In this document: in pieces, positions 5,262 through 54,730 of the stretch | Layout: the number at the start of each line of letters is the position of its first letter | How positions within the stretch are numbered: position 1 is the first letter of the stretch | DNA from: an uncultured Christensenella sp. | GTDB lineage: Bacteria; Bacillota; Clostridia; Christensenellales; UBA1242 | Direction of reading: 5' to 3' | DNA length: 55,282 nt | NCBI GenBank assembly: GCA_964411325.1 | Contig: CAYPKM010000001.1 | Span: 1-55,282 of the forward strand | Notes under the pieces: generated by a model | The model's input: only the letters and a program-made list of their open reading frames with translations | Told to the model about the DNA's origin: nothing | Database searches by the model: none | Made by a program: the position numbers and the translations under genes

Positions 5262-5296
5262 TTAAAAAGTCGAAAAACATTTTTCAAGTTTGCTTT
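5244..5296 (-). terminator. Terminator of the HD-domain gene
   Basis: Arms aagcaaactt (5252-5261) / aagtttgctt (5286-5295). On the minus strand the hairpin is followed by a T7 run. Confidence 0.6.
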
Positions 5297-5324
5297 GATT
5301 GAATATTTTTTGATGAAAAATATA

Positions 5325-5975: not shown

Positions 5976-6143
5976 GTATGCTCCTAATTACTTTAATTGT
6001 TATTTTATATTTCGATTTTAACACAGGGATTAATTTTTTGCAATATAGAAATATTATTTTTGCAATTTCTAGTGTGAATATTGTTTTTCTTTTTTTGGTC
6101 AACCTGACTTGATTTGTGTTTGCGAACAAAAACATCGCTTAAT

Positions 6144-6188
6144 TTATATTGTGCACAACTCAATTTTTTTGTTTAAAAAAGCAAACTT
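6144..6188. repeat. Intergenic repeat copy B
   Basis: See copy A. It lacks the complementary arm, so it is not a hairpin here. Confidence 0.6.
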
Positions 6189-6201
6189 CTACAAAAGGAT
6201 T

Positions 6202-6229
6202 TTGATTTTTTGGGGAAATATGTTAAAAT
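6202..6229 (+). promoter_or_regulatory. Candidate ugd promoter
   Basis: TTGATT, 16-nt spacer, TGtTAAAAT (-10 at 6224-6229). Confidence 0.4.
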
Positions 6230-6262
6230 CACAAAACTATTAGATACAAAAGGAGAAATTTA

Positions 6263-7459
6263 GTGAAAAATATTGTAGTGTTTGGAATGGGGTATGTCGG
6301 GCTTTCAAATTCACTTTTGTTAGCACAAAACAATAATGTTGTAGGCATAGAGATTGATAAGAAAAAGGTGGAATTATTAAATAACAAAATATCTCCTATC
6401 GAAGACAAAGAGATATCTGAATTTTTGAAAAACGAAGATTTGCATTTTGTTGCAAAAGTAGAAGATGATGAGATGGTGTCAAAGGCAGATTATGTTTTGG
6501 TTTGTACGCCAACTAATTATGATGAGATAAATGAGTATTTCAATGTGTCTTCTGTAAATAGTGTTATAGACAAGGTTGTCGCAATCAACAAAAATGCAGT
6601 AATTGTTGTCAAATCCACAATTCCAGTGGGTTTTGTAGATAGTGTGGTTAAAAAACACCCGGATATCAATATCTTGTTTTCGCCTGAGTTTTTGAGAGAG
6701 GGGCAGGCTTTGAAAGACAATCTTTATCCATCAAGAATTATTGTAGGAACGGATTTGAAAAACAAAAAGTTGTGCGAGTCTGCCGAAGAGTTTAGAGATA
6801 TAATGTTGCAATCGGCTATGGCTCAAGACGTGCCAACTTTTATAATGGCTTATCAAGAAGCAGAGAGCGTGAAGTTATTTTCAAATACATATCTAGCAAT
6901 GAGAGTTGCGTTCTTTAATGAATTGGATAGTTTCGCTTTGAACAAAAATTATAATTCCAAAGCCATTATCGAGGGTGTATGTGCAGACAAAAGAATCGGT
7001 GCGTATTACAATAATCCATCATTTGGATATGGTGGTTATTGCCTGCCAAAAGATACCAAACAATTATTTGCCGAATACGAAAGAACTTTCGTACCTAATG
7101 AATTGATGAAAGCCATAGTTGATTCCAATTCGTGTAGAAAGAAAGTTATTTTGAAAGATATTTTGGAAAGAACACAGCCAGAAGATGTAATTGGTGTGCA
7201 TAGACTTGCTATGAAGGCTAATTCGGATAATTGCAGGTCTAGTGCAATTGTTGATGTGGTGAAGATGTTGGCAAGATACAGAAAGGTGATTGTGTATGAA
7301 CCTACAATTGCAGATTTGGGAGTAGACAATGTGGAAATGGTGAATTCGCTTGAGACATTGAAGACTAGTTCGCAATTAATACTAGCAAATAGAATAACCA
7401 AAGATATTTCTGATGTGGTAGAAAAGGTGTACACAAGAGATATCTACAATCGCGATTAA
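6263..7459 (+). CDS. ugd: UDP-glucose 6-dehydrogenase
   Basis: N-terminal 'VFGMGYVGLS' Rossmann motif and catalytic 'GGYCLPKD'. GTG start with AAGGAGA RBS. Confidence 0.85.
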   Translation: MKNIVVFGMGYVGLSNSLLLAQNNNVVGIEIDKKKVELLNNKISPIEDKEISEFLKNEDLHFVAKVEDDEMVSKADYVLVCTPTNYDEINEYFNVSSVNSVIDKVVAINKNAVIVVKSTIPVGFVDSVVKKHPDINILFSPEFLREGQALKDNLYPSRIIVGTDLKNKKLCESAEEFRDIMLQSAMAQDVPTFIMAYQEAESVKLFSNTYLAMRVAFFNELDSFALNKNYNSKAIIEGVCADKRIGAYYNNPSFGYGGYCLPKDTKQLFAEYERTFVPNELMKAIVDSNSCRKKVILKDILERTQPEDVIGVHRLAMKANSDNCRSSAIVDVVKMLARYRKVIVYEPTIADLGVDNVEMVNSLETLKTSSQLILANRITKDISDVVEKVYTRDIYNRD

Positions 7460-7477
7460 TTTTAAAAAAAGGCTTAG

Positions 7478-7525
7478 AGATACTGCCAAGTAAGTTTGGC
7501 AGATATCCCCAAAGTCTTTTTTTTG
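7478..7525. terminator. Hairpin between convergent ugd and the 7548-8357 gene
   Basis: ctgccaa (7485-7491) / ttggcag (7497-7503), with A- and T-rich runs on both sides. Confidence 0.45.
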
Positions 7526-7547
7526 TTTCTTGGGAAGAATATGTGGG

Positions 7548-8357
7548 TCAAGACAATTGCTTGTTTTGCCAAGAAGTATATTCTTTTTGGAAATTTGTAG
7601 AATAAACTTTTGCTTTTGCTTTTTGAAACTTTTCATATTTGGTTGCAAAAGAAGATTGACTTTCGTTTGTAATCTTTTTCATATGGTTTGAGTATTTTTC
7701 GGTGTTTAAATTTGTTAATTTTTCTTTTAAATCAATTTCATTTTTGGTTGGAGAAAATTTATTTTCTATATGGTAATTATTTGTCAAATTAATTAGTTTT
7801 ACCTCGCTTAATTTTCCCAATTGCTTTAGTGAATACTCAGGTAGAGATTGGTGCAATGTTTGCATTAATTTAAACTTGTTTGCACAACAAATATTATTTT
7901 TCTTTTTTTCATCAAACATATTTCTGTCTTCGTAGTTTTCGGTGACGGCACATAGTATTTCTTTTTGCTTTAGATATTTATTGACACTTTGAACAATATG
8001 TACGTCCAAGGCTTGTGTAATGCCGTCTATTACCGTGATATTAATTGCGTTGTCTTCGCCGTCTACATCGATGTATCCAGTCCTAGCACAAAGGTCTATA
8101 AAGTCTGTGCTAACGTCGCTTATGTCTTTGCCTTTGTAATCGGTATTTGCAAGTACAATTCTAGCATCATCATTGAGTGGTCTGCAACTAACTACTTTGA
8201 AGTGCTTGTCGCAGAGAAATTCCACACGTGGATTTATTTCTAATTGTACATAATTGTAGTCTTGTGCAGTAATTCCCGAAAAAATAATAAATGCTATTGC
8301 ACTCAAGACTACAACTCCTACAAAGATTAAAGATAGTATTGTTCCTTTCTTTTCCAT
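7548..8357 (-). CDS. Membrane-anchored protein with an RsgI-middle-domain-like region and a Lys-rich C-terminus
   Basis: Start taken at 'MEKKGTILSLIFVGVVVLSAIAFIIF' (single TM). 'VQLEINPRVEF...VVSCRPLNDDA' resembles the RsgI middle domain. The track ORF (to 8783) extends antisense into folD and is rejected. Confidence 0.45.
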   Translation of the reverse strand: MEKKGTILSLIFVGVVVLSAIAFIIFSGITAQDYNYVQLEINPRVEFLCDKHFKVVSCRPLNDDARIVLANTDYKGKDISDVSTDFIDLCARTGYIDVDGEDNAINITVIDGITQALDVHIVQSVNKYLKQKEILCAVTENYEDRNMFDEKKKNNICCANKFKLMQTLHQSLPEYSLKQLGKLSEVKLINLTNNYHIENKFSPTKNEIDLKEKLTNLNTEKYSNHMKKITNESQSSFATKYEKFQKAKAKVYSTNFQKEYTSWQNKQLS

Positions 8358-8511
8358 AATCACCCGTAAATTTGCTTTTGGTTTATTTTTTGCAAACAAG
8401 AATTTTTTATGCAATAATGGCATTGGAGATTTCAAGATTGTTGGGCGTTTTTGTTTGTGAATTTTTGTAATTAATGCTAAATTAAATATAATGAAATTTG
8501 GAGGATGAAAT

Positions 8512-9351
8512 ATGGCGATAGTGATGAATGGCAAAGTAATTGCAAGTGAGTGCGAAGAGCAAATGAAAGAAAGGGTGGTGGTTTTGAAGGAAAAGCTAAA
8601 CTTTACACCAACGCTTGCTACAATAATTGTCGGCGATGATGTCGCTAGTGTGACATATGTAAATATGAAAGCCAAGGCGTGCGAGAGGGTAGGGCTGGGC
8701 TCAAAGATTATTAGGCTGAGTGAAGACTCTAATACAGAGGATTTACTAACTGAGATAAAAAGGCTAAATGAAGATAAGTCCATTTGTGGGATACTTCTTC
8801 AGCATCCCACTCCTAAGCACATTGATGAAAGGAAATGCTTTGATGCAATTGCAATAGAGAAAGATGTGGATGGGGTGAATAGTCAAACTTTTGGCAAAAT
8901 GGCATTGGGAGAAAAATCGTATTTGCCTGCTACACCATATGGCATAATGCGTTTGCTTGAGTATTACGGCATAGAACTTGAGGGCAAAAACGCTGTGGTT
9001 GTGGGCAGAAGCGCTATACTTGGCAAGCCTATTGCAATGCTTTTGCTAGCCTCTAATTGCACCGTCACCATTTGTCATTCAAAAACAAAAAATCTGCCAG
9101 AGATTTGCAAGACGGCAGATATAATAGTCGGTGCTGTGGGCAAACCGAAATTCATAAAGAAAGAATGGTTAAAAGAAGGTGTGGTCTTGATTGATGCTGG
9201 GTACAACGCCGGCAATGTGGGAGATATAGACCTAGAAAATTGTGTGGAAAAAGCATCTGCATATACTCCCGTTCCGGGTGGGGTAGGCCCAATGACCATT
9301 AATTCGCTAATTTTGCAGACTTTGGAAAGTGCCGAGAAAATGAGTAATTAA
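8512..9351 (+). CDS. folD: Bifunctional methylenetetrahydrofolate dehydrogenase / methenyl-THF cyclohydrolase
   Basis: 'LATIIVGDDVASVTYVNMKAKACERVG', 'GILLQHPTPKHID', 'KDVDG', 'VVVGRSAILGKP', 'TPVPGGVGPMT'. Confidence 0.9.
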   Translation: MAIVMNGKVIASECEEQMKERVVVLKEKLNFTPTLATIIVGDDVASVTYVNMKAKACERVGLGSKIIRLSEDSNTEDLLTEIKRLNEDKSICGILLQHPTPKHIDERKCFDAIAIEKDVDGVNSQTFGKMALGEKSYLPATPYGIMRLLEYYGIELEGKNAVVVGRSAILGKPIAMLLLASNCTVTICHSKTKNLPEICKTADIIVGAVGKPKFIKKEWLKEGVVLIDAGYNAGNVGDIDLENCVEKASAYTPVPGGVGPMTINSLILQTLESAEKMSN

Positions 9352-20084: not shown

Positions 20085-20157
20085 TGGATGTTTTATATTG
20101 CTTAGCAATTGCATTTCAAGGAAAATAATGGTTGTTATTTAACATTCCACGATATCC

Positions 20158-20186
20158 TTGACATAAATTATATTAATTGTTAAAAT
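20158..20186 (+). promoter_or_regulatory. Sigma-A-type promoter upstream of uppS
   Basis: TTGACA (20158-20163), 17 nt ending TGt, TAAAAT (20181-20186). Confidence 0.6.
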
Positions 20187-20231
20187 GTTTTTGCTGGTAT
20201 GCAAAAATACAAAAGTTTAAGTGGGTTATTT

Positions 20232-20930
20232 ATGAAAGAAGATTTGAAAAAACTGCCGGGGCACTTGGCGATTATTATTGATGGCAATGGCAGATGGGCG
20301 AAACTAAGAGGGCTTACCCGTATGATGGGACACGATGCCGGGTTTAAAAATTTGAAGAAAATTACTCGTGAGTGTTTTTATGATTACGATATTCCTATTG
20401 TTAGTATCTACGCTTTTTCTACAGAAAACTGGAATAGACCAGAAAAAGAAGTCAATCACTTGATGAATATATTTAGAAAATATTTGGATGGAAGTTTTTT
20501 GAAAGACTATCCTGATGTTAGTTTTAATCTAATGGGGGATCCAAATGGTTTGCCAAAAGATATTGCAGACAAAGCACTTGACTTGATGGAGAAAACCAAG
20601 GGTAGGAAATATATTTTGAATATTGGCATTAATTACTCTGGACAAGACGAATTGGTGATAGCGGTCAACAAGATAATTTCTGAAGGGATAGCGAAAGTGG
20701 GCAGAGAGGAAATATCTAATCATCTATTCACTGCCGGTCAACCACCTGTTGATTTGATGATTAGGACTAGTGGCGAACTTAGACTTAGCAATTTTATGCT
20801 ATGGCAATTGGCTTATGCAGAGTTTTATTTTCCAAAGTGTCACTGGCCTGCTTTTGATAGCAATGAATTGTACAATGCGTTGTTTGAGTACCAAAGTCGA
20901 GATAGAAGGTTTGGGGCGATTAAAGAATAA
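20232..20930 (+). CDS. uppS: Undecaprenyl-diphosphate synthase (isoprenyl transferase)
   Basis: 'GHLAIIIDGNGRWA', 'FSTENWNRP', 'IRTSGELRLSNFMLWQLAYAEFYF'. The ATG at 20199 is only about 6-13 nt from the predicted transcription start, so 20232 is preferred. Confidence 0.85.
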   Translation: MKEDLKKLPGHLAIIIDGNGRWAKLRGLTRMMGHDAGFKNLKKITRECFYDYDIPIVSIYAFSTENWNRPEKEVNHLMNIFRKYLDGSFLKDYPDVSFNLMGDPNGLPKDIADKALDLMEKTKGRKYILNIGINYSGQDELVIAVNKIISEGIAKVGREEISNHLFTAGQPPVDLMIRTSGELRLSNFMLWQLAYAEFYFPKCHWPAFDSNELYNALFEYQSRDRRFGAIKE

Positions 20931-26534: not shown

Positions 26535-26747
26535 TTATGCCAAAATTGTAATATCTCTAGCAATAATCATTGTGATTAAATCCAAGATGTAGAATAGTGG
26601 GCAAAGGATGATATTTAGGATAACTCCCAAAATATTGCCTCTTTGTGCTCTTGTGATAATACCACAGATGATATTTGTTGGAGTGATGATTGCCAAAATT
26701 AAGCAAACAATCCAACTAAGACCAAAATATCTTTTTGTACTTGCCAT
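26535..26747 (-). CDS. Small hydrophobic membrane protein (70 aa, 2-3 TM)
   Basis: AAGGAGA RBS 8 nt before ATG 26747. Almost entirely hydrophobic. Family not recognised. Confidence 0.55.
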   Translation of the reverse strand: MASTKRYFGLSWIVCLILAIITPTNIICGIITRAQRGNILGVILNIILCPLFYILDLITMIIARDITILA

Positions 26748-26906: not shown

Positions 26907-27506
26907 TTATTCTTGTTTTTCATTCTTTTTGATGTTTTTGATAAAGCTATTCAAAACTACAACTGCTTGCACAGGCGCTCCTACAAAGAATATTAGCCAT
27001 AGATTGTATCTGACAAATTGACAATATATTCCTGCGATAAACGACCATATGAATATTGAAGATATGTATATGGAATACTTTTTGCTCCCCCAAATTCTAT
27101 TGAAGTAAGTGAGTACCAATGCGCTCGATGGTATTGCCCAAATAAATATTTGCCAACAAACGATATCGTTGTATATATTCAAATACAAAAATATAAGCAG
27201 TGCGGTTAGCCATACAATTAGCACAGATAGTGCAACGCACACAATCTTGTTGATAGACTGCTGTTTGCTAGACGATGGGATGATTGGTGTGGAAGAATGT
27301 TCTTTGAAAAGATAACCTGTTTCCACCTCAAATAATTCAGCCAATTTCTGCAGAGTCTCTATGTCTGGCAGAGATTCGCCTTTTTCCCACCTAGAGACTG
27401 CTTTGTCTGAATAATGAACTGCCTCTCCCACTTCTGATTGGGTGAGCTTTCTATTTTTCCTTAATGTTTGCAAATTGTTTGCAATTATTTCTTTTATGTT
27501 TTCCAT
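26907..27506 (-). CDS. XRE-family HTH regulator fused to a 4-TM membrane domain
   Basis: 'LRKNRKLTQSEVGEAVHYSDKAVSRWEKGESLPDIETLQKLAELF', then four hydrophobic helices. Confidence 0.8.
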   Translation of the reverse strand: MENIKEIIANNLQTLRKNRKLTQSEVGEAVHYSDKAVSRWEKGESLPDIETLQKLAELFEVETGYLFKEHSSTPIIPSSSKQQSINKIVCVALSVLIVWLTALLIFLYLNIYNDIVCWQIFIWAIPSSALVLTYFNRIWGSKKYSIYISSIFIWSFIAGIYCQFVRYNLWLIFFVGAPVQAVVVLNSFIKNIKKNEKQE

Positions 27507-27710
27507 ACTTGGATTTTAGCACAAAAAAATTAAGGCTACAATCAAAATAAGTCATTTTTGTGCAAAAAAATACAAAATTCTCGCTGGGAGAGAGTGCTTG
27601 CGAGAAATTCTCTTTTGATGATTTCAAGATTAGAGAAGAGCATACATTCTTTAGTTTGTAAGAGATTGATGGGCTGTAATATAATTAAAATATCCAAGGA
27701 GGAAATTGTA

Positions 27711-29063
27711 ATGAAAAATGATTACCAATTATATGAAACTACTTTGTCTCAAGATTTGCCAATACTTCAGACCAAGTATACTCTATACAAAAGGATTATT
27801 AATATAACTATGTCTGCCATAACCCAAAGACATCTTGATTATGATATTATGTTAAAAGCATTAAATAAGACTGTCGAGAGAAATGATTGTGCTAGACTTA
27901 GATTTGTAAAAAAGAAGGGCAAGATAATGCAATACTTTTTGCCCAAGTTTGAATATGAGAATATGACTTATAGACATTTTGATGATAAGGTGGCTCAAGA
28001 GAAGTTTATCTCAAAGGAAGTTCATACTGCAGTCAAGTATATGAAAGGCGAAGTTTTGAAACCATACTTTATAGAGACTTATGACAATAAATTTATGATT
28101 ATCCTAAAGGTCTGTCATATTAATTTTGATTTGTATGGCTTAAATATATTTTTCAAAGATTTGTTTGATGTGTATGAATGCTTGGAAAAGGGAAAAGAAT
28201 TGCCAAAAAGTCCTCTTCCTTTTGAGAATGTCATAAAGAAAGATTTGGAGCACAAAAACGATAAGGAATATTTCGCGAAAAACGAGAAGTTCTTTGATGA
28301 ATATTTACGGGCGAGGAGTCAGCCATATTATGCTGGACTTCACGGCAAGAAAGGCAAACATTATGAAAAGATGATTGACAAGGGCAAGCATTCTATGCGA
28401 ATGTTTTTCTTGAAAAACGATACAAAGGGATATATGCACGATATACCAGACGCTGTGACTGCCAAGTTGCTTGAATACTGCCAAGAAAACAAAATATCCC
28501 CAGCCAATTATTTGCTTTTCGCTTTTAGTGTAGTTCAAGCAAAAATGAATGATGTATACAATCTAATGCCTTTGGAACTTTGCAATTGCAGAGGAACTAT
28601 TAGTGAAAAACTCTCAGCAGGAACCAAAGTTCAAAGTTTGGCTTGCTATACGACTATTCATCCCGAAATGGATTTCGATGAAAATTTGAAACAATTCTGC
28701 GAAAACCAAATGCTACTGTATAAGCACATCGGATTCTCAGATACAGCCTTTCAAATGATGAGTCACAAAATTTATAATAGTTCGCTTTTGGGAACATTCT
28801 ATTCTTTGACCTTTTCATTTATCCCAATGGATATACCGGATGGCATAGAATTTGGGGTGTTTAGCAATGGCAAATGTGCATTGCCAGCATATATAGCCGT
28901 TGTCTTTGATATCAAGAAAAAGAGTATGAAAATAGTTTACGATTGTCAAACGCAATTGATGGATGATGAAGATATTAGACATTTCCATAATGAACTTATG
29001 AAGACTTTGAAAGTGGTTTTGGAAAATCCAAAGACCAAGATAGAAAAACTAAAGATTAAATAA
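27711..29063 (+). CDS. Standalone NRPS-type condensation-domain protein
   Basis: The ATG at 27711 has an AAGGAGG RBS. 'VCHINFDLYG' fits the HHxxxDG-type core. About 450 aa, the size of a C domain. Confidence 0.6.
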   Translation: MKNDYQLYETTLSQDLPILQTKYTLYKRIINITMSAITQRHLDYDIMLKALNKTVERNDCARLRFVKKKGKIMQYFLPKFEYENMTYRHFDDKVAQEKFISKEVHTAVKYMKGEVLKPYFIETYDNKFMIILKVCHINFDLYGLNIFFKDLFDVYECLEKGKELPKSPLPFENVIKKDLEHKNDKEYFAKNEKFFDEYLRARSQPYYAGLHGKKGKHYEKMIDKGKHSMRMFFLKNDTKGYMHDIPDAVTAKLLEYCQENKISPANYLLFAFSVVQAKMNDVYNLMPLELCNCRGTISEKLSAGTKVQSLACYTTIHPEMDFDENLKQFCENQMLLYKHIGFSDTAFQMMSHKIYNSSLLGTFYSLTFSFIPMDIPDGIEFGVFSNGKCALPAYIAVVFDIKKKSMKIVYDCQTQLMDDEDIRHFHNELMKTLKVVLENPKTKIEKLKIK

Positions 29064-29075
29064 GAGAGGTTTTTT

Positions 29076-30800
29076 ATGTACAAAACAGAAAGACAAATGA
29101 ATAAAAATAGATTATTAAAAGATGGCGATTATGAAAATTTGCGTCAAATATTTGAGCGAGTTGCGACTTTTATGCCAGAAACAAATATTTTGGCAGAATT
29201 AAATGACAAAAAAGAAATTGTCTATCATAATGCCAAAGAGATGTCTGAAACATTCTTTGCAATAGGCGAGGGATTAATTTGTAATGGCTTTGAGGGCAAA
29301 CATATAGCCATTGTTGCTACTAATTCTTATAGATATGTATTGACAGATGTTGCTATCGCTAGTGGCGTGGGCGTAGTGACTCCTATAGATAGAGATGCAA
29401 ATGGTGAATTGCTTGCAACACTTCTTGCCAAAGTGGATGCTGAAGTTGCAATTGTTTCTAGTGATGTTTTGGAAAAAATTGTAAATGTCCAAAAGAATTA
29501 CAAAAAATTAAAAAAGATTATAGTTATAGACAAAGTAATTGATGGATATTTGTCTTTGGACAAAATTATAGAAGATGGCAAAAATGTAGAAAAACGAGTT
29601 TTTGCCAATAAAAAACTAAAATTAAATGACCCTTGCGAGATTCTTTTGACATCGGGGACAACTGGTGCAAACAAATGTGTAATAATGACACAAAAGAATA
29701 TGACAGCCAATGTGCTTAATTGTATGAATACCATTAAAGGAACAGACAAGAAAAACACATCTATGTCAATTTTGCCTATGCACCACGCAACCGAGATTAA
29801 TACACACATTTTGCCAAGAATTGCTAGTGGACGACTAACTTATATTAGTAGTTCTATGAAAGATATGATGAATAATATCAAGATATTCAAACCATACGTT
29901 ATAACTGTTGTTCCAATGATTGCCAATGCTTTCTACAAAAATATTTGGTTAAATGCCAAAAAAGCAGGCAAGGCAGAAAAATTGCAAAAGGGCATTAAAC
30001 TTTGTAATCTTCTCAATAAATTTGGCATAGATATTACTCACAAATTATTCAAAGACGTTTTCACTCCATTTGGTGGCAATTTGTGTCAAATAGTTTGCGG
30101 AGGTGCACCACTAAATCCAGAAGTTGTATCGGGGCTCAAAGATTTGGGAATTTATATAGTCAATGGCTTTGGCATTACCGAGTGTGGACCTTTGGTTTCT
30201 ATGAATACAGAAACGGACAAAGAAGTGTATTCTATAGGCAAGCCTTGTAATGGACTAAAAATAAAAATTGCAGACGCCGACGAAGATGGCGTGGGCGAAT
30301 TGTGTGTGAAAGGTGACAGCGTATCAAAGGCTTATTACAAAGATGAAAAAGGCACAAAGGAAGTACACGATAGTGATGGATTTTTCCATACAGGAGATTT
30401 GGTTAGAATGGACAAAAAGGGTAGATTGTTCATCGCTGGTCGAAAGAAAAATTTGATAGTGCTAAGCAATGGCAAAAATGTATTCCCAGAAGAATTGGAA
30501 ACTGGAATTGTCAATAGTTTCCCTTATATCAAAGATGTAGTTGTGTTCGAGGGGGATTATCTCAAGAACAAAGAAAAAATTCAAACCATTGTTGCTATGT
30601 TTAATATTGATGAAAAAGAAAAAGTAACAGCAGAAAAGATATTGGAAGACTTCCGCGAATTCAACAAAACCTTGCCAGCGTACAAAAGAATAGGTTATTT
30701 GGAGATTATCAATGAGGAATTTGAAAAGAATGCTACCAAGAAAATTATTCGTGCAGAGGCAATCAAAAAACACGATACACAAAAAGGAATAATTGTATAG
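29076..30800 (+). CDS. Acyl-AMP/acyl-CoA ligase (ANL superfamily, long-chain fatty-acid ligase-like)
   Basis: 'LLTSGTTGANKCV', 'NGFGITECGP', 'FHTGDLVRMDKKGRLFIAGRKKNLIVLSNGKNVFPEELE'. Confidence 0.8.
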   Translation: MYKTERQMNKNRLLKDGDYENLRQIFERVATFMPETNILAELNDKKEIVYHNAKEMSETFFAIGEGLICNGFEGKHIAIVATNSYRYVLTDVAIASGVGVVTPIDRDANGELLATLLAKVDAEVAIVSSDVLEKIVNVQKNYKKLKKIIVIDKVIDGYLSLDKIIEDGKNVEKRVFANKKLKLNDPCEILLTSGTTGANKCVIMTQKNMTANVLNCMNTIKGTDKKNTSMSILPMHHATEINTHILPRIASGRLTYISSSMKDMMNNIKIFKPYVITVVPMIANAFYKNIWLNAKKAGKAEKLQKGIKLCNLLNKFGIDITHKLFKDVFTPFGGNLCQIVCGGAPLNPEVVSGLKDLGIYIVNGFGITECGPLVSMNTETDKEVYSIGKPCNGLKIKIADADEDGVGELCVKGDSVSKAYYKDEKGTKEVHDSDGFFHTGDLVRMDKKGRLFIAGRKKNLIVLSNGKNVFPEELETGIVNSFPYIKDVVVFEGDYLKNKEKIQTIVAMFNIDEKEKVTAEKILEDFREFNKTLPAYKRIGYLEIINEEFEKNATKKIIRAEAIKKHDTQKGIIV

Positions 30801-30810
30801 GAGAAAGACT

Positions 30811-31032
30811 ATGGATAAATTGAAAGAGATTATTAGTTTGTATACAGGCGTATCGCCTATGGATATCGATGACAAAATGAGTTTGTCTGGAGACATAGGG
30901 TTGGATTCGTTTAGCATTATATCAATGATTTGTGATATAGAAGAAAGTTTTGATATAAGCATTCCAGAGAGTGAGATTACCAAATTTCAGACTTTGGATG
31001 ATTTGTACAATTACATAAATAAGGTTGCATAA
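30811..31032 (+). CDS. Acyl/peptidyl carrier protein
   Basis: 73 aa. 'DIGLDSFSIISMI' is a phosphopantetheine-Ser motif. AGGAGA RBS. The track start at 30793 is rejected. Confidence 0.7.
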   Translation: MDKLKEIISLYTGVSPMDIDDKMSLSGDIGLDSFSIISMICDIEESFDISIPESEITKFQTLDDLYNYINKVA

Positions 31033-31066
31033 AAAATCCCCAACCAAATAATTGGATGGGGTTAAA
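31031..31066. terminator. Bidirectional terminator shared by the carrier-protein gene and the micro-ORF
   Basis: ccccaaccaa (31037-31046) / ttggatgggg (31051-31060) with one mismatch. An A-run lies before it and T/A-rich sequence after. Confidence 0.6.
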
Positions 31067-31067
31067 A

Positions 31068-31205
31068 CTAGGTTGTAGATATTGAATTGGTTGTGTTTAA
31101 ATATACAGTTGATATTGTTCTTCTATTAATTATTACAAAGGGATTTGAGCAACAACAAGTATTTGTATTGCAACCACTACATCTATTTCGCGAAAAACAA
31201 CACAT
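31068..31205 (-). CDS. Unlisted 45-aa Cys-rich micro-ORF
   Basis: Hand translation gives MCCFSRNRCSGCNTNTCCCSNPFVIINRRTISTVYLNTTNSISTT, then a stop. An AAGGAG RBS lies 7 nt upstream of ATG 31205. A terminator follows immediately. It is below the 60-aa cutoff of the track. Confidence 0.5.
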   Translation of the reverse strand: MCCFSRNRCSGCNTNTCCCSNPFVIINRRTISTVYLNTTNSISTT

Positions 31206-31344
31206 ACACCACTCCTTGAAAATATTGGGGCATAATTATCCCCACTTTATATTATGCTAGGGGAGAGTCAATTAGTGTTAATTAATTGCTAAATAATTGT
31301 ATTTGTGCTAAGATATTAAAAGTTTTGAAAGGAGAGGTTTGTAG

Positions 31345-31989
31345 ATGAAAATTATCAAGATTGTAGGTGGTGGCGAGATTAGGCGTTTTGGTCAAAATAC
31401 ATATCTTATAGCAGATGGCGAGGATGCTATTTTGATTGACGGCAGTGCTAGCGTTAATGAAGTTCAAAAAAATTTAAGTATGTTTAATCCCAAACCAAAA
31501 CTAAAAGCAATCTTTTTGACTCATTCGCATTTTGACCATATTTATCAATTGTCGCAATTGGTGGAGAAATTTGAGTGTGTGGTTTATACCAATAAGTTTG
31601 GTCAAGATATTTTGAAAGACAAAGACAAAAATCTTTCTATTTTCCTCAAAAATCCTTTTGAGTTCAAAGAGAAGAATTGCATTAGGATATTTGGTGATGA
31701 TGAAGAAATTTGCATTGGAGATATCAAAGTTCATTGTTATCTAACGCCGGGACATTCATTGGATAGTGCTTGCTTTGAGATAAAGGGCAATATGTTTACA
31801 GGCGATACTATCCACAAAAATTGCATTGGAAGAGTTGATTTGATAGGTGGGGATGCTCACCAAATGAAAATTAGTTTGCAAAGGCTTAGGAATGTTTTGG
31901 GCAAAGATATTGATACATTCTATCCCGGTCACGGCGAAAACTTTGATAATTCCATATTAAATTCTGTAGTTGATTATTATGTCAAATAA
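31345..31989 (+). CDS. Metallo-beta-lactamase-fold hydrolase (glyoxalase II-like)
   Basis: 'IFLTHSHFDHI' (HxHxDH), 'TPGHS', 'GDTI', 'PGHG'. Confidence 0.75.
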   Translation: MKIIKIVGGGEIRRFGQNTYLIADGEDAILIDGSASVNEVQKNLSMFNPKPKLKAIFLTHSHFDHIYQLSQLVEKFECVVYTNKFGQDILKDKDKNLSIFLKNPFEFKEKNCIRIFGDDEEICIGDIKVHCYLTPGHSLDSACFEIKGNMFTGDTIHKNCIGRVDLIGGDAHQMKISLQRLRNVLGKDIDTFYPGHGENFDNSILNSVVDYYVK

Positions 31990-32023: not shown

Positions 32024-32039
32024 TTGAGTGTTCAAAAAG

Positions 32040-32287
32040 ACGAAGATTATGTTTTTAGTAGTGTAATGAGTTCGCCATATCAGAGAGAAATTGCCATAGG
32101 CTGAGAGCAATTTCGCGATTAAACTTTACACGAATTTCGCACATAGGAGTTGCTGGTAGGAAATGATCAGACGGGGTGATTTGCCGTAATACAAATTTAA
32201 GAGGAAAAGAATATTTCTTTTTGAAATAGGGTGGTACCACGGTTAATTCGTCCCTATGGTGTGCAAATACACCATAGGGATTTTTTT
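32040..32287 (+). promoter_or_regulatory. T-box leader (Phe) with terminator/antiterminator
   Basis: AGAGAG bulge (~32083), GCTGAGAG distal loop (~32100), F-box-like GCCGTAA (~32182), T-box 'AATAGGGTGGTACCACGG' (32225-32242). Terminator tccctatggtgt / acaccataggga (32251-32280) plus T7. UUC triplets at 32112-32114 and 32136-32138 are candidate specifiers. Confidence 0.85.
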
Positions 32288-42612: not shown

Positions 42613-43296
42613 TTAATATCCTCTAAGTTTGGTGTTGGGGATAGAGTCTCTTAAGTATCCCAAAAACATATTTGCATCATCTTTGGGTACTTCTGTCAAA
42701 TTGCTCTCCATACAATTGCCACTGTCTTCGAATTTTTGCAAGTAATATCTCTTGGCATTTCTTATCATTTTGGAGATTTTTTTGATGTCGTCAAAAGTAT
42801 GCAATTGGCTAACAAGTGTGGTTCTAAATTCGTAATCAATACCACAATTCATTATATATTGTATAGATTGCTGGATGATGTCTATGTCATAATTTTTGCC
42901 TATGGTTTTTGAATAGTTATCATAACAATTTTTGATATCCATTGCTATATAGTCTATTAGTTTGTTCTCCACTAGATATTTTATCATATCGGGATTGGTG
43001 CCGTTGGTATCCAATTTTATCTCATAACCCATTTGCTTGACTTTGACTATAAACTGTGGCAAGTCGGCGTACAGTGTTGGCTCACCTCCACTAATACAAA
43101 CACTATCCAAAAGTCCAAATCGGTGGCGTAGATATTCAAGTATTTCCTCTTGGTCAAGTTCGGGTTCGCTTCCTTTGACTAGTCCAGCATTGTGGCAGAA
43201 AGGACAAGCGAAATTGCAACCACTCACAAAAATTGTGGCACTTATGTGTCCGTCAAAGTCAACTAGGGATAATTTTTGAAATCCAGATATTTTCAT
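42613..43296 (-). CDS. nrdG: Anaerobic RNR activating enzyme (radical SAM)
   Basis: 'FQKLSLVDFDGHISATIFVSGCNFACPFCHN', 'GVCISGGEPTL'-type region. Confidence 0.9.
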   Translation of the reverse strand: MKISGFQKLSLVDFDGHISATIFVSGCNFACPFCHNAGLVKGSEPELDQEEILEYLRHRFGLLDSVCISGGEPTLYADLPQFIVKVKQMGYEIKLDTNGTNPDMIKYLVENKLIDYIAMDIKNCYDNYSKTIGKNYDIDIIQQSIQYIMNCGIDYEFRTTLVSQLHTFDDIKKISKMIRNAKRYYLQKFEDSGNCMESNLTEVPKDDANMFLGYLRDSIPNTKLRGY

Positions 43297-48370: not shown

Positions 48371-50446
48371 TTAGAAATCGAAAGGATTGCTTCCACTAGG
48401 CTTGTTATTTGCATTGTTGCTACTACCACCTTGTGGGGCAGTCTTTCTAAGTACTTTTTGATTACGGATATGAATGTCGTAGTAAACTTCGCTCTCGTTT
48501 AATTGTTTAGGTAATTCGTTATTGTGAGGAGCAGGGGTCATATCGTACACATCGCATTTGTAACTAGGTGTAAATATGGCTCTGATTGGATTCCTCTGTA
48601 GGATTGATACGATACATTCACCACTATTAGGTTTAAGTGAGCCTAATTCAGCTGGATATATAAGTGGACGGGTGTCAAGCTGTACATTGACAGACTTGCT
48701 CTCTTTGGCACCTTCTTCGCCACCCTTGCTAATAGATGTGGTCTCGGTCTCAACAGAGATGTTTCCGCAACGCTTACTAAATTCTTCTTTGGTATTATCA
48801 TCGTTACTAGCAATGAATATATGGATATTACAGTTGTCTTTGACAGTAGCACTTACTTCTTGACCATACTTAATAGTCAATTGCGCATATGATTGCAAAA
48901 TAAGTGTGAAATAAATTCTTCTAGAACGAGCGACGGTAATGATGGTATCAAAGTTCTCAATCTTAGGCATATTACCAAATTCATCTAGCAAGAAATATAC
49001 ATCTCTAGGTAGTGCTCCGCCACGCTTGTTGGCTACATCAACTAGTATCTTGTACAATTGCGATACAAACATTGTGGCAATAGGGTGACGAGTAGTTTTC
49101 TCATCAGGGATTTTGATAAATATAGCGGTAGGCTGGTCGGTGAAAGTCTTCAAATCCATCTCGTTGACAGATGTACAGTAACATACACCCATATCACTAA
49201 ACAAACCCATTCTATTGGCAACAATACCCATATAAGACATCTTGGTCTTGTCGGCGTTGGTGATTACTTGATTGGCAAGTTGTGTGGCTTTGCTATGCAC
49301 ATCTCTGCCTTGAAAGTATTCTGTAAGTGTCTTGAAAGGATTGTAAGGGTCGTTGTCTTTGAGTGCAAGTATTTGCGAAAGATTATAAAAATTAAATTTG
49401 TCTTTGGTCATCCCTAGCTCAGGATTCTCACTATCTTCTAGCATTGCAAGCATTGTGCCTAGCACTAGGTCTCTAGCACCTCTATCCCAAATAGGGTCGT
49501 TTTGAGACTCAATAGGGCATAGCACACTCGCCAAGTCTTTCAATTCATCAAAGGCATTGTCTTTGAGAATTTGCTTAAGCGACGCTTGGTGACTATTAAG
49601 AGTCTGTACATCGGCAAAGGCGAATCCGTCAAATTCGTACCACTCACCATAATATATCTGGCTGACACACTTTAGACTAAAGTCTCTAGGGTCGTCATTG
49701 TGGTGAATGATTACTTCGTCATTTAGATTCATCGCTCTTTGATTTAGTTCATACGCTCTAGTCATTGGGTTCCAACAAGCACTCTGAAAAGGCTCTTTTA
49801 GGTCGAATGTCAAAACTCTATAGCCGTTTTTCCTCAGTTTCTCACTATGTGCATCATAAATTTCGCCCTTAGGGTCAGTCACGACTAGACAAGGTTTGGC
49901 GTGCGACTCGCTAAGTATTTGCACAGTTGGGTTGATAAACTGAGTGGTTTTACCAGCACCAGTAGTACCTATTACTAGCGTGTGAATAGGCTTGTACATA
50001 TTGACATTTAGCTTGTTGCCAACAAGCTCGGCTCTAATAGGTATGCCCACATTGTCTGAGCGGTGCAAGTCGTCATAGTAATGAAATTTAAAGTCGGGAT
50101 TGCTCTTTAGCTCGTCAGTAGATATCCAATTGGTATCGTAATACTTCTTGATTCCGCCCTTGGTCTCTACTTTGGCTTTGGTCTCTCCATCCTTGAATTT
50201 GTGATTGCTTAGCGTTATTAGCATTGTGATTAGTGCTATGAAGAATACTAGCAAAAATACCGATTTAAAAGTCTCATTGTCAAACATCACTTCTATATCA
50301 TCTAGCTTGAGTGTGCCAAAAGCCATATAACTACCAGCTACATATGCCAAAACTACTACTAGTGCAAATCCTAGAATAAATATAAGCAATATCTTTTTAA
50401 ACTTTCCACCACCAGACGATTGTTTCTTTTCTTTTTTGTCTGCCAT
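48371..50446 (-). CDS. Type IV secretion coupling protein (VirD4/TraG family)
   Basis: Two N-terminal TM segments, Walker A 'VIGTTGAGKTTQF', Walker B 'YFLLDEFGNMP'. The ATG at 50446 has an AAGGAAGAG RBS. Confidence 0.8.
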   Translation of the reverse strand: MADKKEKKQSSGGGKFKKILLIFILGFALVVVLAYVAGSYMAFGTLKLDDIEVMFDNETFKSVFLLVFFIALITMLITLSNHKFKDGETKAKVETKGGIKKYYDTNWISTDELKSNPDFKFHYYDDLHRSDNVGIPIRAELVGNKLNVNMYKPIHTLVIGTTGAGKTTQFINPTVQILSESHAKPCLVVTDPKGEIYDAHSEKLRKNGYRVLTFDLKEPFQSACWNPMTRAYELNQRAMNLNDEVIIHHNDDPRDFSLKCVSQIYYGEWYEFDGFAFADVQTLNSHQASLKQILKDNAFDELKDLASVLCPIESQNDPIWDRGARDLVLGTMLAMLEDSENPELGMTKDKFNFYNLSQILALKDNDPYNPFKTLTEYFQGRDVHSKATQLANQVITNADKTKMSYMGIVANRMGLFSDMGVCYCTSVNEMDLKTFTDQPTAIFIKIPDEKTTRHPIATMFVSQLYKILVDVANKRGGALPRDVYFLLDEFGNMPKIENFDTIITVARSRRIYFTLILQSYAQLTIKYGQEVSATVKDNCNIHIFIASNDDNTKEEFSKRCGNISVETETTSISKGGEEGAKESKSVNVQLDTRPLIYPAELGSLKPNSGECIVSILQRNPIRAIFTPSYKCDVYDMTPAPHNNELPKQLNESEVYYDIHIRNQKVLRKTAPQGGSSNNANNKPSGSNPFDF

Positions 50447-50523
50447 TATTTCACTCTTCCTTTTGGTCAATTTTCCCTTACTTTTCTTTAAGTATAATAT
50501 ATAATAGACATAAATCTATTAGT

Positions 50524-50552
50524 AGTATATTAAATTTTTGCATTACTGTCAA
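50524..50552 (-). promoter_or_regulatory. Sigma-A-type promoter for the coupling-protein gene
   Basis: On the minus strand: TTGACA (50552-50547), 17 nt, TATACT (50529-50524). Confidence 0.55.
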
Positions 50553-50671
50553 AAAAAATAACCTATCAAAAATAAATTCTAAAAAATATATCCTCCCCAT
50601 TCTTTAGTTTTATCACTATTTGAGAAAAATCTAATATTTTTTATTTTTTTGCAAAAAATATAGTAATTTAG

Positions 50672-50700
50672 TTGACTAAAGTAATTTTTTCGACTAAACT
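50672..50700 (+). promoter_or_regulatory. Candidate promoter for the pilin-like/T4SS genes
   Basis: TTGACT (50672-50677), 17 nt, TAAACT (50695-50700). 'gactaaa' occurs twice in direct repeat. Confidence 0.45.
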
Positions 50701-50740
50701 TTGTGTAGTTAATAACTAAAAAATTAAAGGGGAAATAAGT

Positions 50741-51055
50741 ATGAAAAAATTGTTTACAAGATTGGAAACTTCAAATCTTAGTGATGTAGCTGGCGCTTTT
50801 TCTAAAGTAATAAAGAATATTTTGTCACCAGTTCTTGGTATTATCGGTGTTTTGCTAGTTGTTTATGTTGTTTATCTAGGCGTAATGTATGCCAAAGCTG
50901 AGAGTGCTGATAAGAGAAAAGAAATTCAAAGTAGACTAATTGCTTCTATCGTCGGTGCTGTTATCGTTATTGCAGGTGCAACACTTTGCTTGACTCTTGA
51001 TTGGACAAATATCTTTAAGAACTTTGCCAATGCTAATGATGCTAATATATCATAA
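50741..51055 (+). CDS. Small two-TM conjugation protein (VirB2/TrbC-pilin-like), copy 1
   Basis: 104 aa. A leader-like N-terminus, then two hydrophobic helices separated by the charged loop 'AKAESADKRKEIQSR'. Paralogous to 51245-51685. Confidence 0.55.
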   Translation: MKKLFTRLETSNLSDVAGAFSKVIKNILSPVLGIIGVLLVVYVVYLGVMYAKAESADKRKEIQSRLIASIVGAVIVIAGATLCLTLDWTNIFKNFANANDANIS

Positions 51056-51130
51056 ATCTAGAACGATTTGGAGCGATTATCAAATCGCTTTGTCTGCAAC
51101 TATTTTGTATATGGTTGTATGGAAGAGTAC

Positions 51131-51165
51131 AAAACTCGCAAAATTTTTGCGAGTTTTTTCTTTTC
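51131..51165 (+). terminator. Terminator/attenuator after pilin-like gene 1
   Basis: aaaactcgcaaaa / ttttgcgagtttt plus a T-run. Confidence 0.75.
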
Positions 51166-51244
51166 TGTAGTCAAATTTGCTTGTAAAGATGAGGGAATAT
51201 GTGTTAATATATTATATGAAAATGTAATTTTGAGGAGAAGTGGA

Positions 51245-51685
51245 ATGCTTTCTAAATTATTAAATATAGGGATGTTGTTGTCGGGCTCAGGCACTACGGA
51301 TAGGATTGTTGCTACTGCTGAGAAAGTCAACGAGGTTTTGAAGAGTATCGTAGCCCCTTGTTTGTCTGTGCTAGAGGGCTGTGCCGTTATATATATTGTT
51401 ATCCTCGCTGTACAGTATGTCAAGTCTGAGAATGCAGACAAGAGAACTGAGGCCAAAAAGAGGATTGTCAATCTAGCAATAGGTGCTGTGATAATTCTTG
51501 TAATGCTTACTATGTGTTACCTTATCAAGTGGGATAAGTTGGTTCCAGAATTGTTTGGATATTTGGGGTCTGGACAGGCCTCTGGCGGTGGCGGTGGCGG
51601 TAACGCTGGCGGTGGTGCCGATAGCAAACCTACCAACAATAGATATGACGCACTCAATGCAATAAGGGCACTTCTATTTAGATAA
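51245..51685 (+). CDS. Small two-TM conjugation protein (VirB2/TrbC-pilin-like), copy 2, with Gly-rich tail
   Basis: The ATG at 51245 follows GAGGAGA. 'VQYVKSENADKRTEAKKRIVNLAIGAVIILV' aligns with copy 1 'VMYAKAESADKRKEIQSRLIASIVGAVIVIA'. The tail is GSGQASGGGGGGNAGGG. The track start at 51068 is rejected. Confidence 0.55.
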   Translation: MLSKLLNIGMLLSGSGTTDRIVATAEKVNEVLKSIVAPCLSVLEGCAVIYIVILAVQYVKSENADKRTEAKKRIVNLAIGAVIILVMLTMCYLIKWDKLVPELFGYLGSGQASGGGGGGNAGGGADSKPTNNRYDALNAIRALLFR

Positions 51686-51762
51686 ATGGCGAAATCTCTA
51701 GGTTTTTTGTATGCCAAAGATTTTTGCCAAGTGAAAAATACAAAATTTGAAAATGTTTAAGA

Positions 51763-51799
51763 AAAACTCGCAAAGTAAATGCTATGGCGAGTTTTTTTG
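51763..51799 (+). terminator. Terminator after pilin-like gene 2
   Basis: aaaactcgc (51763-51771) / gcgagtttt (51788-51796) plus a T-run. The arms are nearly identical to those at 51131-51165. Confidence 0.7.
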
Positions 51800-52084
51800 C
51801 TTTTCAAAAATACTATTGTTGTTATATGTCCTTGTTATATTCCAAAAAACAATTAAAGTTATTTATCAGTAACTTCGATATATACAAACATAATCTCATT
51901 CTATACGAAAATATGATGCCATCGTGTAGTTGATTTTAAATTCCACTTTGCATTATACAGAAATAAACCCATTATATATATAAATATATATAAAAATAAT
52001 AAAATATATTAAATTATTTGTTTTTTTTGTCGAAATAGGTTAAGATAAGTATAGAATATTTAATTTTCTTTAGGAGAATGGAAA

Positions 52085-54730
52085 ATGGGCGTTAATTCTT
52101 TGTTGGGAATCCTTTCGGGCTTAGGCGATATTTTAGGTAGCGTTTTTACAAGTATTTTTACGTGGGTTATCAATGCTTTGGTTGTGCCAGTTGTTAAATG
52201 TGCTATTAGAGTTGTAATAGTTATTATTCAATACTTTGGAGCTACTATTTTTTACGAGGTTTCCAAATTTTTGTTGGGATTAATAGACTTTGTAGAAGTT
52301 TTGTTTAGAGCTCTTGCTGGTTTGCAAGTTATTGGTGAAAATAATACTGGCGAAATGACTATCAGTATGCAGGTCAATAATTCTATGGGAAGTTCTGACT
52401 TGCTACTTCAAATGCTTACTTCTTCCGATGTAATACAAGCCTTTTATGCTACAGCCATTGTTGGATTGTTTTTGTTAATGATTACAACTATTTTCCAAAT
52501 GATCAAGGTGGAATATACCACCGAAGGTGCTCAGAATAGCAAATCTGGCATTATTGGCAAATCTCTGAAATCTCTAAGCAATATGCTTATAATCCCACTA
52601 CTATGTATCATGGGTGTATTTATAGGCAATCAAGTGCTAGGACTAATAGACACAGCCACTGGTGGTGGAGAAGGTACCAAAATCTCTAGACAATTGTGGG
52701 TAACGGCCGCCTCCACGGCAACGACAGCGACGGTAGGTGGTTTTAGTACGGCAATAGGCAAAGATATTGAAGATGGAGGTTACGGAATTGATGTTGATCA
52801 TTTAGAAAATGAAGGAGGGATGTTAGGTACAGGTATGACAATCGCTTTGATCAAAGGCTTTAAAACAATAACTGATGATAAGGCGGCATCTACTCCTGTC
52901 TGTGCAATGTCGGATGCGGATAATGGTGCTGAGGCGGCATTTACGAGTGGTGATTGTAATTATGCTGAATTGAAGGACGTAATAGAATATTACAATCCAT
53001 TCGAAATTAATTACTTGGTTTTGATATTTGGTGCAGTTATTATTATCAAATGCTTATTTTATACCTGTTTTGGACTCATCGATAGATTGTATCAATGTGT
53101 AGCCCTCTTTATAGTAATGCCAATGGTTGTAGGTATGTCACCAGTCAAAGATAGTCTGGGCTCGTGGCGAGGCAAGTTTATGCAAAAGGCACTCTCTGCA
53201 TACGGCACGGTAATCTCACTCAACCTATTCTTTATTATTGTGAAAGTACTGCTTAATATTGATATTGTGATTACGAATAATACTTTGCCATTTCCAGATG
53301 TGCTTGTGAAAGGACTAATCAAATCCATAATGGTAATAGTAGGCTGTATGATGATAGAGAAACTTGCTGGTGACTTAGGTGGATACTTTGGTGCAGGCAA
53401 CGCAATGGCAGAGGGCAAAGGCTTAGCCAAAGAGGCAACAGCTGGCATAGCCAAAGCGGCTACAGTAGGTATGGGAGTCGCAACTATGGCTGGAGGACTA
53501 GCTGTAAAAGGTATCAAAGCTACTGGTGGTATAGCAGGAAAAATTGGAAGTGGTGCTCATAAACTTGGAGACAAAGTATCGGGAGGAAGATTAACAAAAT
53601 TTGAAGACAAAGCTAAATCTAAAGTTAAAGATGTTGCACATGCTGCAGGTGATAAAGTTTCCAATTTGAAGCCGGTTAAGGCTGTTACTGGTGTTGCCAA
53701 AGGGGTAGCCGGGGTAGCCAGTGGAGTAAAAAACTTTGTAGATGAAACAGCAGCTGGTGCAACTGGCGTCAACAAGGCCAAAAAGAATGCTGCAGAGAAA
53801 ACGGCAACTTATGAAACTGCTCAAGCTCGTGCAGATGCACTAAAAAAGGAATATGAGAAACTCGGTAGTCATGATAATTTGATGGCGTGGTCAAATGCAC
53901 AGAAAGATGCGAACGCGGCTAAAGAAGAGATGGATGCGGCAAATCAAGTAGTTAGCAATAATCAAAGCAAAGTAGATAAGCTTAGAGCTGATAGAAGTGA
54001 AAAAATACAACAAAAAACAGGAAACGCGGTTCGAAAAGTTGTTACTACCAAAAATGCTCTTGGACAATTGTATGAAAATAAATTTGGTGCAAAAGCAGTG
54101 TTTAATGCAGTTGCACCTAAAGGCGCACAAAACCTTCAAAAGGATTATCAGACCGCATTGAAAGAAGGTAATGATACTCCAGAAGGACAAGCAATGTTGG
54201 CTGCATTAGAGGAATCTAAAAAGAAGGCTAAAGAAGAATCTTATAATAAAAATGCACTTAATGCTCTTGGGATTGGAATGTTGAACTTGCAACAAACACA
54301 ATTGATTTTGAATACAGCTAATGCCAAGCTTGCTCAAACCAATGCCGAAACTAATAAAGATTTGGAAAAATTAAATGAGACATTGAGGGATTTGATTGCT
54401 AAGTATAATAATACAAGTGATCAATCAGCCAAAAATATGTATGCCAACCAAATAAGTGCTGTGCAATCTAGTATGCAAGCCAAAAATAGCAAGATTGAAT
54501 TTGGTGAGAACTTCGAAGTTAAGAATACTAGCGAATTGAAAGTTGACTTCAAGATGGATGGCGACTTTATGAAGAAAATGCAAGAGCAAATCAAAAAAGG
54601 CGTCAAGATGGACAAGATTATGGAGCAAATCAGCGAAGAATTCAAGAGAATGGGTATTACAGACAAAGATACTCTTGCCAAGATTTACAAAGCTTTGGAA
54701 GAACTTAAAAGTCAAACTGGCGGTAAATAA
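52085..54730 (+). CDS. VirB6/TrbL-like polytopic membrane protein with a long Ala/Lys-rich coiled-coil C-terminal half
   Basis: 881 aa. Residues ~1-450 hold at least 7 hydrophobic segments. Residues ~480-881 are low-complexity helical (AKxxA, KKEYEKL, etc.). It sits between the pilin-like genes and VirB4. Confidence 0.55.
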   Translation: MGVNSLLGILSGLGDILGSVFTSIFTWVINALVVPVVKCAIRVVIVIIQYFGATIFYEVSKFLLGLIDFVEVLFRALAGLQVIGENNTGEMTISMQVNNSMGSSDLLLQMLTSSDVIQAFYATAIVGLFLLMITTIFQMIKVEYTTEGAQNSKSGIIGKSLKSLSNMLIIPLLCIMGVFIGNQVLGLIDTATGGGEGTKISRQLWVTAASTATTATVGGFSTAIGKDIEDGGYGIDVDHLENEGGMLGTGMTIALIKGFKTITDDKAASTPVCAMSDADNGAEAAFTSGDCNYAELKDVIEYYNPFEINYLVLIFGAVIIIKCLFYTCFGLIDRLYQCVALFIVMPMVVGMSPVKDSLGSWRGKFMQKALSAYGTVISLNLFFIIVKVLLNIDIVITNNTLPFPDVLVKGLIKSIMVIVGCMMIEKLAGDLGGYFGAGNAMAEGKGLAKEATAGIAKAATVGMGVATMAGGLAVKGIKATGGIAGKIGSGAHKLGDKVSGGRLTKFEDKAKSKVKDVAHAAGDKVSNLKPVKAVTGVAKGVAGVASGVKNFVDETAAGATGVNKAKKNAAEKTATYETAQARADALKKEYEKLGSHDNLMAWSNAQKDANAAKEEMDAANQVVSNNQSKVDKLRADRSEKIQQKTGNAVRKVVTTKNALGQLYENKFGAKAVFNAVAPKGAQNLQKDYQTALKEGNDTPEGQAMLAALEESKKKAKEESYNKNALNALGIGMLNLQQTQLILNTANAKLAQTNAETNKDLEKLNETLRDLIAKYNNTSDQSAKNMYANQISAVQSSMQAKNSKIEFGENFEVKNTSELKVDFKMDGDFMKKMQEQIKKGVKMDKIMEQISEEFKRMGITDKDTLAKIYKALEELKSQTGGK

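Follow-up and report, generated by a model that had tools for sequence, protein, structure and literature searches.

A 45-codon open reading frame in the genome of an uncultured Christensenella sp. belongs, as judged from sequence, to a new small-protein family inside a known general kind, and this family is real yet almost never annotated. The frame (here the micro-ORF) lies on contig CAYPKM010000001.1 of assembly GCA_964411325.1, within a stretch of 55,282 nucleotides that is called the window throughout. Translation of its minus strand gives MCCFSRNRCSGCNTNTCCCSNPFVIINRRTISTVYLNTTNSISTT and then TAG. The family has 11 distinct members including this one, with lengths of 43-74 aa. Very likely the micro-ORF is a real gene, monocistronic and served by a predicted promoter, an inverted repeat, a strong ribosome-binding site and a terminator of its own (Table 1); its product would be a tiny, basic protein made in the cytoplasm. 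A conserved small-protein family that annotation pipelines had missed is thereby added, and an attractive but wrong link to the NRPS-like cassette next door is corrected.

Table 1. Features of the window that are discussed in the text (positions count from the first nucleotide of the window).
Feature	Position	Strand	Remarks
Micro-ORF coding sequence	31068..31205	-	45 aa; ATG 31205-31203, TAG 31070-31068; direct reading and 10 distinct homologues
Shine-Dalgarno sequence AAGGAG	31212..31217	-	6 nt 5' of the micro-ORF ATG
Inverted repeat TGGGG-N9-CCCCA	31226..31244	-	at or just after the predicted transcription start; 5' stem-loop or operator
Promoter-like element AC-N18-CATAATATA	31248..31276	-	-35 AC 31276-31275, -10 31256-31248; contains GCATAATAT
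Intrinsic terminator	31031..31061	-	stem-loop 31061-31038, U-run 31036-31031; -14.2 kcal/mol, z -2.65
MBL-fold hydrolase gene	31345..31989	+	Pfam Lactamase_B; divergent conserved neighbour of the micro-ORF
HTH regulator, condensation, acyl-ligase and carrier (C/A/T) module	26907..31032	.	insertion, outside the micro-ORF unit
Gene for 70-aa membrane protein with two TM segments	26535-26747	-	no family match
Collagen-like gene	4611-5111	-	about 4 GXY repeats, all-beta C-terminal domain, N-terminal Cys triplet

The family loci were gathered through homologues of the neighbouring MBL-fold protein, which are many (48-68% identity), and the contigs were then inspected. At every MBL locus that was fetched, an uncalled or seldom called ORF of 43-74 codons lies directly 5' of the MBL gene, on the other strand, and can be aligned with the window peptide. 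In other words, related metagenomic contigs hold homologues at the orthologous position, divergent from the MBL-fold gene. An exact-protein look-up of the MBL gene was uninformative, returning only L003, an identical contig. In the family alignment the initiator Met, three Cys and N-P-F never vary. Short members have ...C-x-C-(A/S/G)-NPF(V/I)I(I/V)... in common, and in four longer members the N-terminus is expanded by CxN/CRNN repeats. The CCC triplet belongs to the window copy only; its relatives have CPC, CGC, CSC and similar. When an HMM is built from the family minus the window member, it recovers the window ORF with an E value of 8.7e-12.

The protein has three parts. First comes an N-terminus that varies in length and is rich in Cys, Asn and Arg (CxC, CC, CxxC), then the invariant C-x-NPF motif (residues 19-23 of the window product) and finally a short, beta-prone, Thr-rich tail. 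Seven Cys fall within the first 19 residues, a count made in an earlier sequence-only reading of this DNA and confirmed here by direct reading. Family members in general are rich in Cys and Asn, and the short ones are basic, with 3-4 Arg and nearly no acidic residues. By direct reading, the family sequences show neither a signal peptide nor a membrane-spanning segment. Neither Pfam nor NCBIfam gives a match for the product (in NCBIfam, four family members searched at E up to 1 gave 0 families). An AlphaFold model of the peptide, made with 3 sequences, is uninformative, with a pLDDT of 47 and without secondary structure.

How thoroughly this family has escaped annotation is apparent from the protein databases. 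When 1.84 billion representatives are searched exhaustively with phmmer, one true member appears, P0057 (45 aa, E 7.9e-6). Three other hits (P0055, P0056, P0058), two of them scoring above it and one below, are spurious, being repetitive, low-complexity proteins. A profile search of 5.8 billion proteins finds two members that had been called as genes, P0057 and P0059. No named relative came from either the 5.8 or the 1.84 billion proteins searched. There was likewise no match in a word-indexed homologue search with the peptide alone, in a JGI metagenome scan with the family alignment or in tblastn searches of plasmid and phage collections. At two loci, L014 and L020, public gene calls on the wrong strand or in the wrong frame overlie the micro-ORF. 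These called ORFs (L014 2572-2904, +; L020 2677-2946, -) are of low complexity and cover the conserved micro-ORF, and they exemplify one way in which the family escapes annotation.

Is the micro-ORF translated? The pattern of substitution among its relatives argues that it is. A codon alignment guided by the protein was made for eight short members, two of them nearly identical. Pairwise dN/dS across these homologues, a check proposed in the sequence-only reading, is 0.13-0.51 and favours the micro-ORF frame; synonymous sites are near saturation, and third-position differences are the commonest. A frame-by-frame comparison of seven members gives a pooled pN/pS of 0.46 and 0 stops in the coding frame. 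The two other sense frames have values of 1.09 and 1.55 with 20-25 stops, and the three antisense frames 0.66-1.33 with 1-30 stops. Many in-frame length changes across the family leave the frame open. All 11 members have AGGAG 6-9 nt 5' of the ATG. In the window itself the AAGGAG, start codon, frame and stop codon are all as originally read, with the correction that the spacer measures 6 nt rather than 7. Conservation of the frame in related genomes, another check that had been proposed, was found at 10 other distinct loci. Because of this in-frame conservation the micro-ORF is more than a product of chance, and it merits the annotation that had been suggested for it.

One alternative is that the micro-ORF is untranslated, a chance ORF within a conserved non-coding RNA or promoter region. 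Gene callers have after all passed over it nearly everywhere, and AT-rich DNA commonly has ORFs of this length. However, a chance ORF would not be expected to stay open at 11 diverged loci that differ by in-frame indels, nor to have an excess of third-position differences and a low dN/dS limited to its own frame. The Shine-Dalgarno sequence and ATG are also kept across the family, and Rfam gives no family at the micro-ORF, its sole match within the window being the pheS T-box. The prospect of a chance ORF is therefore very remote.

The next clue comes from the DNA upstream. When the upstream regions of the 11 loci are anchored on CATA, the only conserved promoter blocks are cAC and CATAnnnT(G/A). 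The spacer from cAC to CATA is 17 in nine loci and 18 in the window and L018. The complete arrangement, cAC-N17/18-CATAnnnT(G/A), is kept in 10 of the 11 loci; L018 has AATATACTG instead. In nine of the 11, 42-43 nt separate the -10 element from the ATG. In Clostridium difficile, sigma-E and sigma-K promoters have very similar -10 elements of the CATA type, such as CATATTAT and CATATAAT, and differ in the -35 element, which is ATA in sigma-E promoters and AC in sigma-K promoters; the three bclA genes for collagen-like exosporium proteins depend on sigma-K (Saujet et al., PMC3789822). At the level of the motif, the micro-ORF element fits this C. difficile sigma-K consensus.

The sequence-only reading had remarked on GCATAATAT as a signal common to the upstream regions of the micro-ORF (31249-31257) and the collagen-like gene (5218-5226). 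It is indeed there in both, and it proves to be part of the conserved promoter-like element. A third copy lies at 28325-28333. This count of 3 against 1.39 expected is not significant by itself, since 11 of 100 shuffles reach 3. The best reading of GCATAATAT is that of a putative mother-cell-type -10 promoter element. Nevertheless, this AT-rich window has many patterns of the form AC-N16-18-CATA (13 matches, where about 18 are expected), so any significance of a single site was rejected and the promoter argument rests only on positional conservation. The micro-ORF -10 element also holds a sigma-A-like TAnnnT. The forespore sigma-G-type -10 consensus of Bacillus subtilis is CATxxTA; this was considered as well and set aside, as it fits four of the 11 members by eye and the -35 is a misfit. 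A third intergenic AC-N16-18-CATAnnnT(A/G) was seen in the window at 20142-20170 (+), just 5' of uppS (20199-20930).

Downstream of the promoter-like element is an inverted repeat that had been described as a GC-rich leader hairpin. The repeat is certainly present, but the hairpin (-7.2 kcal/mol, z -1.1) is not significant alone. What draws attention to it is that all 11 members have a repeat in the same place, beginning 3-5 nt past the -10 element, and that its sequence differs from locus to locus. Examples are TAGACAT-TTA-ATGTCTA, GACAAT/ATTGTC, GAATAC.../...GTATTC and TGGGG/CCCCA, and L019 and L016 have arms of 8-11 bp and loops of about 20 nt. Conservation of place without conservation of sequence speaks more for a 5' stem-loop in the RNA than for an operator that is recognised by its sequence. 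It may be, however, that the predicted start lies within the 5' arm, and in that case an operator would be the better reading.

At the other end of the gene, the terminator adjoins the stop codon of the convergent carrier-protein gene, and it had been taken to be bidirectional. The minus strand has AUUUUUU after the stem, and the plus strand UU only. Thus the hairpin terminator stands, whereas it is bidirectional only weakly and is essentially the micro-ORF's own. A consensus terminator scan missed this hairpin because of an internal mismatch. Hairpins with U-runs, unrelated in stem sequence, also lie behind seven other members.

What might such a protein do? The sequence-only reading had listed a small Cys-rich structural or metal-binding peptide among its possibilities. 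That class is compatible with all the findings and is the one finally favoured. Within it, our tentative reading is that the product may be a small Cys-rich protein of the coat or exosporium, made late in the mother cell; we consider this plausible, though not quite probable. The cAC-N17/18-CATAnnnT(G/A) element would then be a mother-cell promoter of the sigma-K type, so that the product would be made late in sporulation and would end up in the coat or exosporium, the outer layers of the spore. Its cysteines might cross-link to other Cys-rich surface proteins, as is thought for CdeC/CdeM or ExsY/CotY. The inverted repeat, as a 5' stem-loop, could stabilise the short mRNA. A possible partner is the BclA-like collagen protein of the window, which has the same type of promoter and a Cys-rich N-terminus. 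Against this must be set that no sporulation genes were recognised among the scanned genes of the 55-kb window and the flanking loci, and that Pfam and NCBIfam reveal no similarity to a known coat or exosporium protein. The Mycoplasma-ICE families matched by a T4SS protein of the window count against it too, as they make the lineage less certain. More doubtful is a fuller version of the reading, in which the ultra-small C-x-NPF family would serve a clade of uncultured gut Firmicutes as a late spore-surface cross-linker or anchor, possibly for BclA-like filaments, and would be kept together with the divergent MBL gene. Should the spore-surface reading be true, the outer spore layers of uncultured gut anaerobes would have in this family a new building block of very small size, and late mother-cell expression a convenient marker.

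The collagen-like gene most likely starts with the ATG at 5111 (MNNNCCCGGNLPQTITRYVYITGPAGPQGPAG...), and upstream of it is AC-N17-CATAATATG at 5244-5217. An AlphaFold model of the protein is of low confidence (pLDDT 41). Its best PDB matches are to the BclA C-terminal domain (26% identity, E about 8e-3) and the next, also weak, are to C1q/TNF-like domains, so these folds are taken as no more than a hint. A sequence search of the PDB with the collagen-like protein gave nothing meaningful. The BclA-like fold and the AC-N17-CATAATATG element agree with a spore-surface setting.

By sequence and by neighbourhood the micro-ORF family falls outside every known group with which it was compared, namely CdeC/CdeM, ExsY/CotY, SCIFF peptides and metallothioneins. 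It resembles CdeC and CdeM of C. difficile and ExsY/CotY of Bacillus in being Cys-rich without a signal peptide. Its promoter is, at motif level, of the late mother-cell (sigma-K) type, and its setting is similar in that the same genome encodes a BclA-like collagen protein behind the same type of promoter. However, its members have 43-74 aa as against about 150-400 aa, there is no detectable similarity, and the family has a C-x-NPF motif and an Asn-rich composition of its own. The N-terminal exosporium-targeting domain of BclA-type proteins is another short element that comes to mind, and the collagen-like protein of the window also begins with a Cys cluster. Pairwise and profile tests, however, give no significant similarity, the micro-ORF product is not followed by collagen repeats, and its family is conserved as a stand-alone protein.

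Perhaps the partner is not the spore but the enzyme next door. The product might be a metal-binding protein of the metallothionein or zinc-knuckle kind, a thiol-redox partner or a substrate of the divergent MBL hydrolase, with shared intergenic control and no sporulation link. MBL-fold enzymes are zinc enzymes, and the one in the window resembles thioesterases of the glyoxalase-II type. Metal-thiolate clusters typically have CxC, CC and CxxC motifs, and these and the small size recall bacterial metallothioneins of the SmtA/BmtA type. The divergent pairing of micro-ORF and MBL gene holds in 11 of 11 distinct loci, while the genes 3' of MBL vary (pheST or argS). Against this, nearly all of the loci were found through the MBL gene, which is an ascertainment bias. 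In addition, the gene for the 70-aa membrane protein on the other side is equally syntenic, so the neighbourhood (uppS, Wzy_C, the 70-aa gene, MBL, then pheST or argS) may simply be inherited. That gene is in fact better conserved among relatives than the MBL gene (59-90% against 48-68% identity). Nor does the protein look much like a metallothionein. It has no Pfam match to the bacterial families and no His ligands, only three Cys columns are invariant, the Cys region varies greatly in length, and the conserved core is the non-Cys NPF. Finally, the micro-ORF has a terminator of its own and a promoter element of a special type. Of the link to the MBL hydrolase made in the sequence-only reading, what stands is a conserved divergent neighbourhood only. 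An MBL-centred function, although the main rival, is unlikely. If the spore-surface reading is false, the family would remain a clear candidate for a micro-protein with metal or redox activity whose gene pairs with that of an MBL-fold enzyme.

The gene for the 70-aa protein raises another thought. In relatives it lies directly 3' of the micro-ORF, and at nine loci (eight distinct) a single strand carries the micro-ORF, a terminator, about 110-300 nt and then this gene. What if the micro-ORF is a leader peptide, whose translation controls read-through of the terminator into the membrane-protein gene? This seems decidedly improbable. The window has an insertion of 4.3 kb between the two, with genes mostly on the opposite strand, yet both are intact and conserved; a same-strand gene to be regulated is not found directly 3' of the micro-ORF there. 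Purifying selection along the whole peptide, including the invariant NPF, is also atypical for a leader peptide.

SCIFF peptides are small and Cys-rich and occur in Clostridia-like genomes. With its 45 aa, Cys richness and Clostridia-like setting, the micro-ORF product recalls them and could be imagined as the precursor of a modified Cys-rich ribosomal peptide (ranthipeptide/SCIFF-like), possibly processed by the MBL protein. The likeness extends to a length of about 45 residues with 5-7 or more Cys, the SCIFF model TIGR03973 being named for six cysteines in forty-five residues. In NCBIfam the MBL protein comes closest to SolJ, a natural-product hydrolase of the MBL fold, but at 63 bits, far short of the cut-off of 350. 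We nevertheless find a precursor role highly improbable. The four members scanned have no NCBIfam match, TIGR03973 included, and at no locus is there an adjoining radical-SAM/SPASM maturase, protease or exporter. The sole radical-SAM gene of the window (42613-43296) is 11 kb away beside nrdD and probably encodes its activase. The Cys cluster is N-terminal, not C-terminal as in SCIFF, and variable in length, whereas the conserved part of the protein is central and C-terminal.

Two ideas of the sequence-only reading are now hardly credible, namely that the peptide is an acceptor or precursor for the C/A/T proteins or a stand-alone copy of the Cys-rich N-terminal module of the collagen-like protein. 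Both started from observations that are correct: the micro-ORF is adjacent to the cassette in the window, and the micro-ORF product and the collagen-like protein both have a CCC triplet and a TIxxVY-like stretch. However, cassette and micro-ORF occur apart. The sequence-only reading had asked whether the peptide always neighbours the C/A/T trio, and the HTH and C/A/T genes turn out to be absent from nine of nine related loci with enough flank to judge (eight distinct, since L005 duplicates L004). Among the genomes of the collection, a single good homologue of the condensation protein turned up, 63% identical, in L001, a MAG of uncultured Clostridia. There the HTH-membrane regulator and the C, A and T genes are all present (5201-9328, 62-70% identity), what comes after the carrier-protein gene is different, and the micro-ORF is absent. 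Thus nine loci have the peptide without the cassette and L001 has the cassette without the peptide, which undoes the proposed acceptor or precursor role. As relatives without the cassette retain the micro-ORF and the 70-aa gene, the four genes represent an insertion in the present genome. They look to have moved horizontally as a cassette, and the L001 MAG, in which the module recurs in an unrelated context, is from the Hadza gut. A JGI metagenome scan with the acyl-ligase gene gave no match.

The resemblance to the collagen-like protein likewise does not hold up. BLASTP aligns NTCCC with NNCCC only, at an E value of 0.49. Smith-Waterman comparison with 5000 shuffles gives p of about 0.09 for the N-terminal 22 residues and >0.2 for the full protein, and the TIxxVY stretch lies outside the optimal alignment. 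The family HMM, run against 1094 reading frames of the window, does not match the collagen-like protein, and blastn and tblastn reveal no paralogues at the DNA level within the window. The family, moreover, does not conserve CCC. A stand-alone copy of the collagen module was rejected on these grounds, that is, non-significant pairwise and profile similarity and no DNA paralogy.

Some minor observations were made elsewhere in the window. The T-box leader ahead of pheS-pheT lies at 32034-32258 (+) and scores 101.7 bits with Rfam RF00230. Conjugation genes occupy 48371-54730, including those for a T4SS coupling protein, a pilin and an 881-aa membrane protein that matches the Mycoplasma-ICE families MMCAP2_0566 and Mbov_0396; this hints at an integrative conjugative element. 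Lastly, an ORF for an RsgI-like anti-sigma factor (7548-8783, -) and the FolD ORF (8512-9351, +) overlap by about 270 nt, and probably one start codon is mis-assigned.
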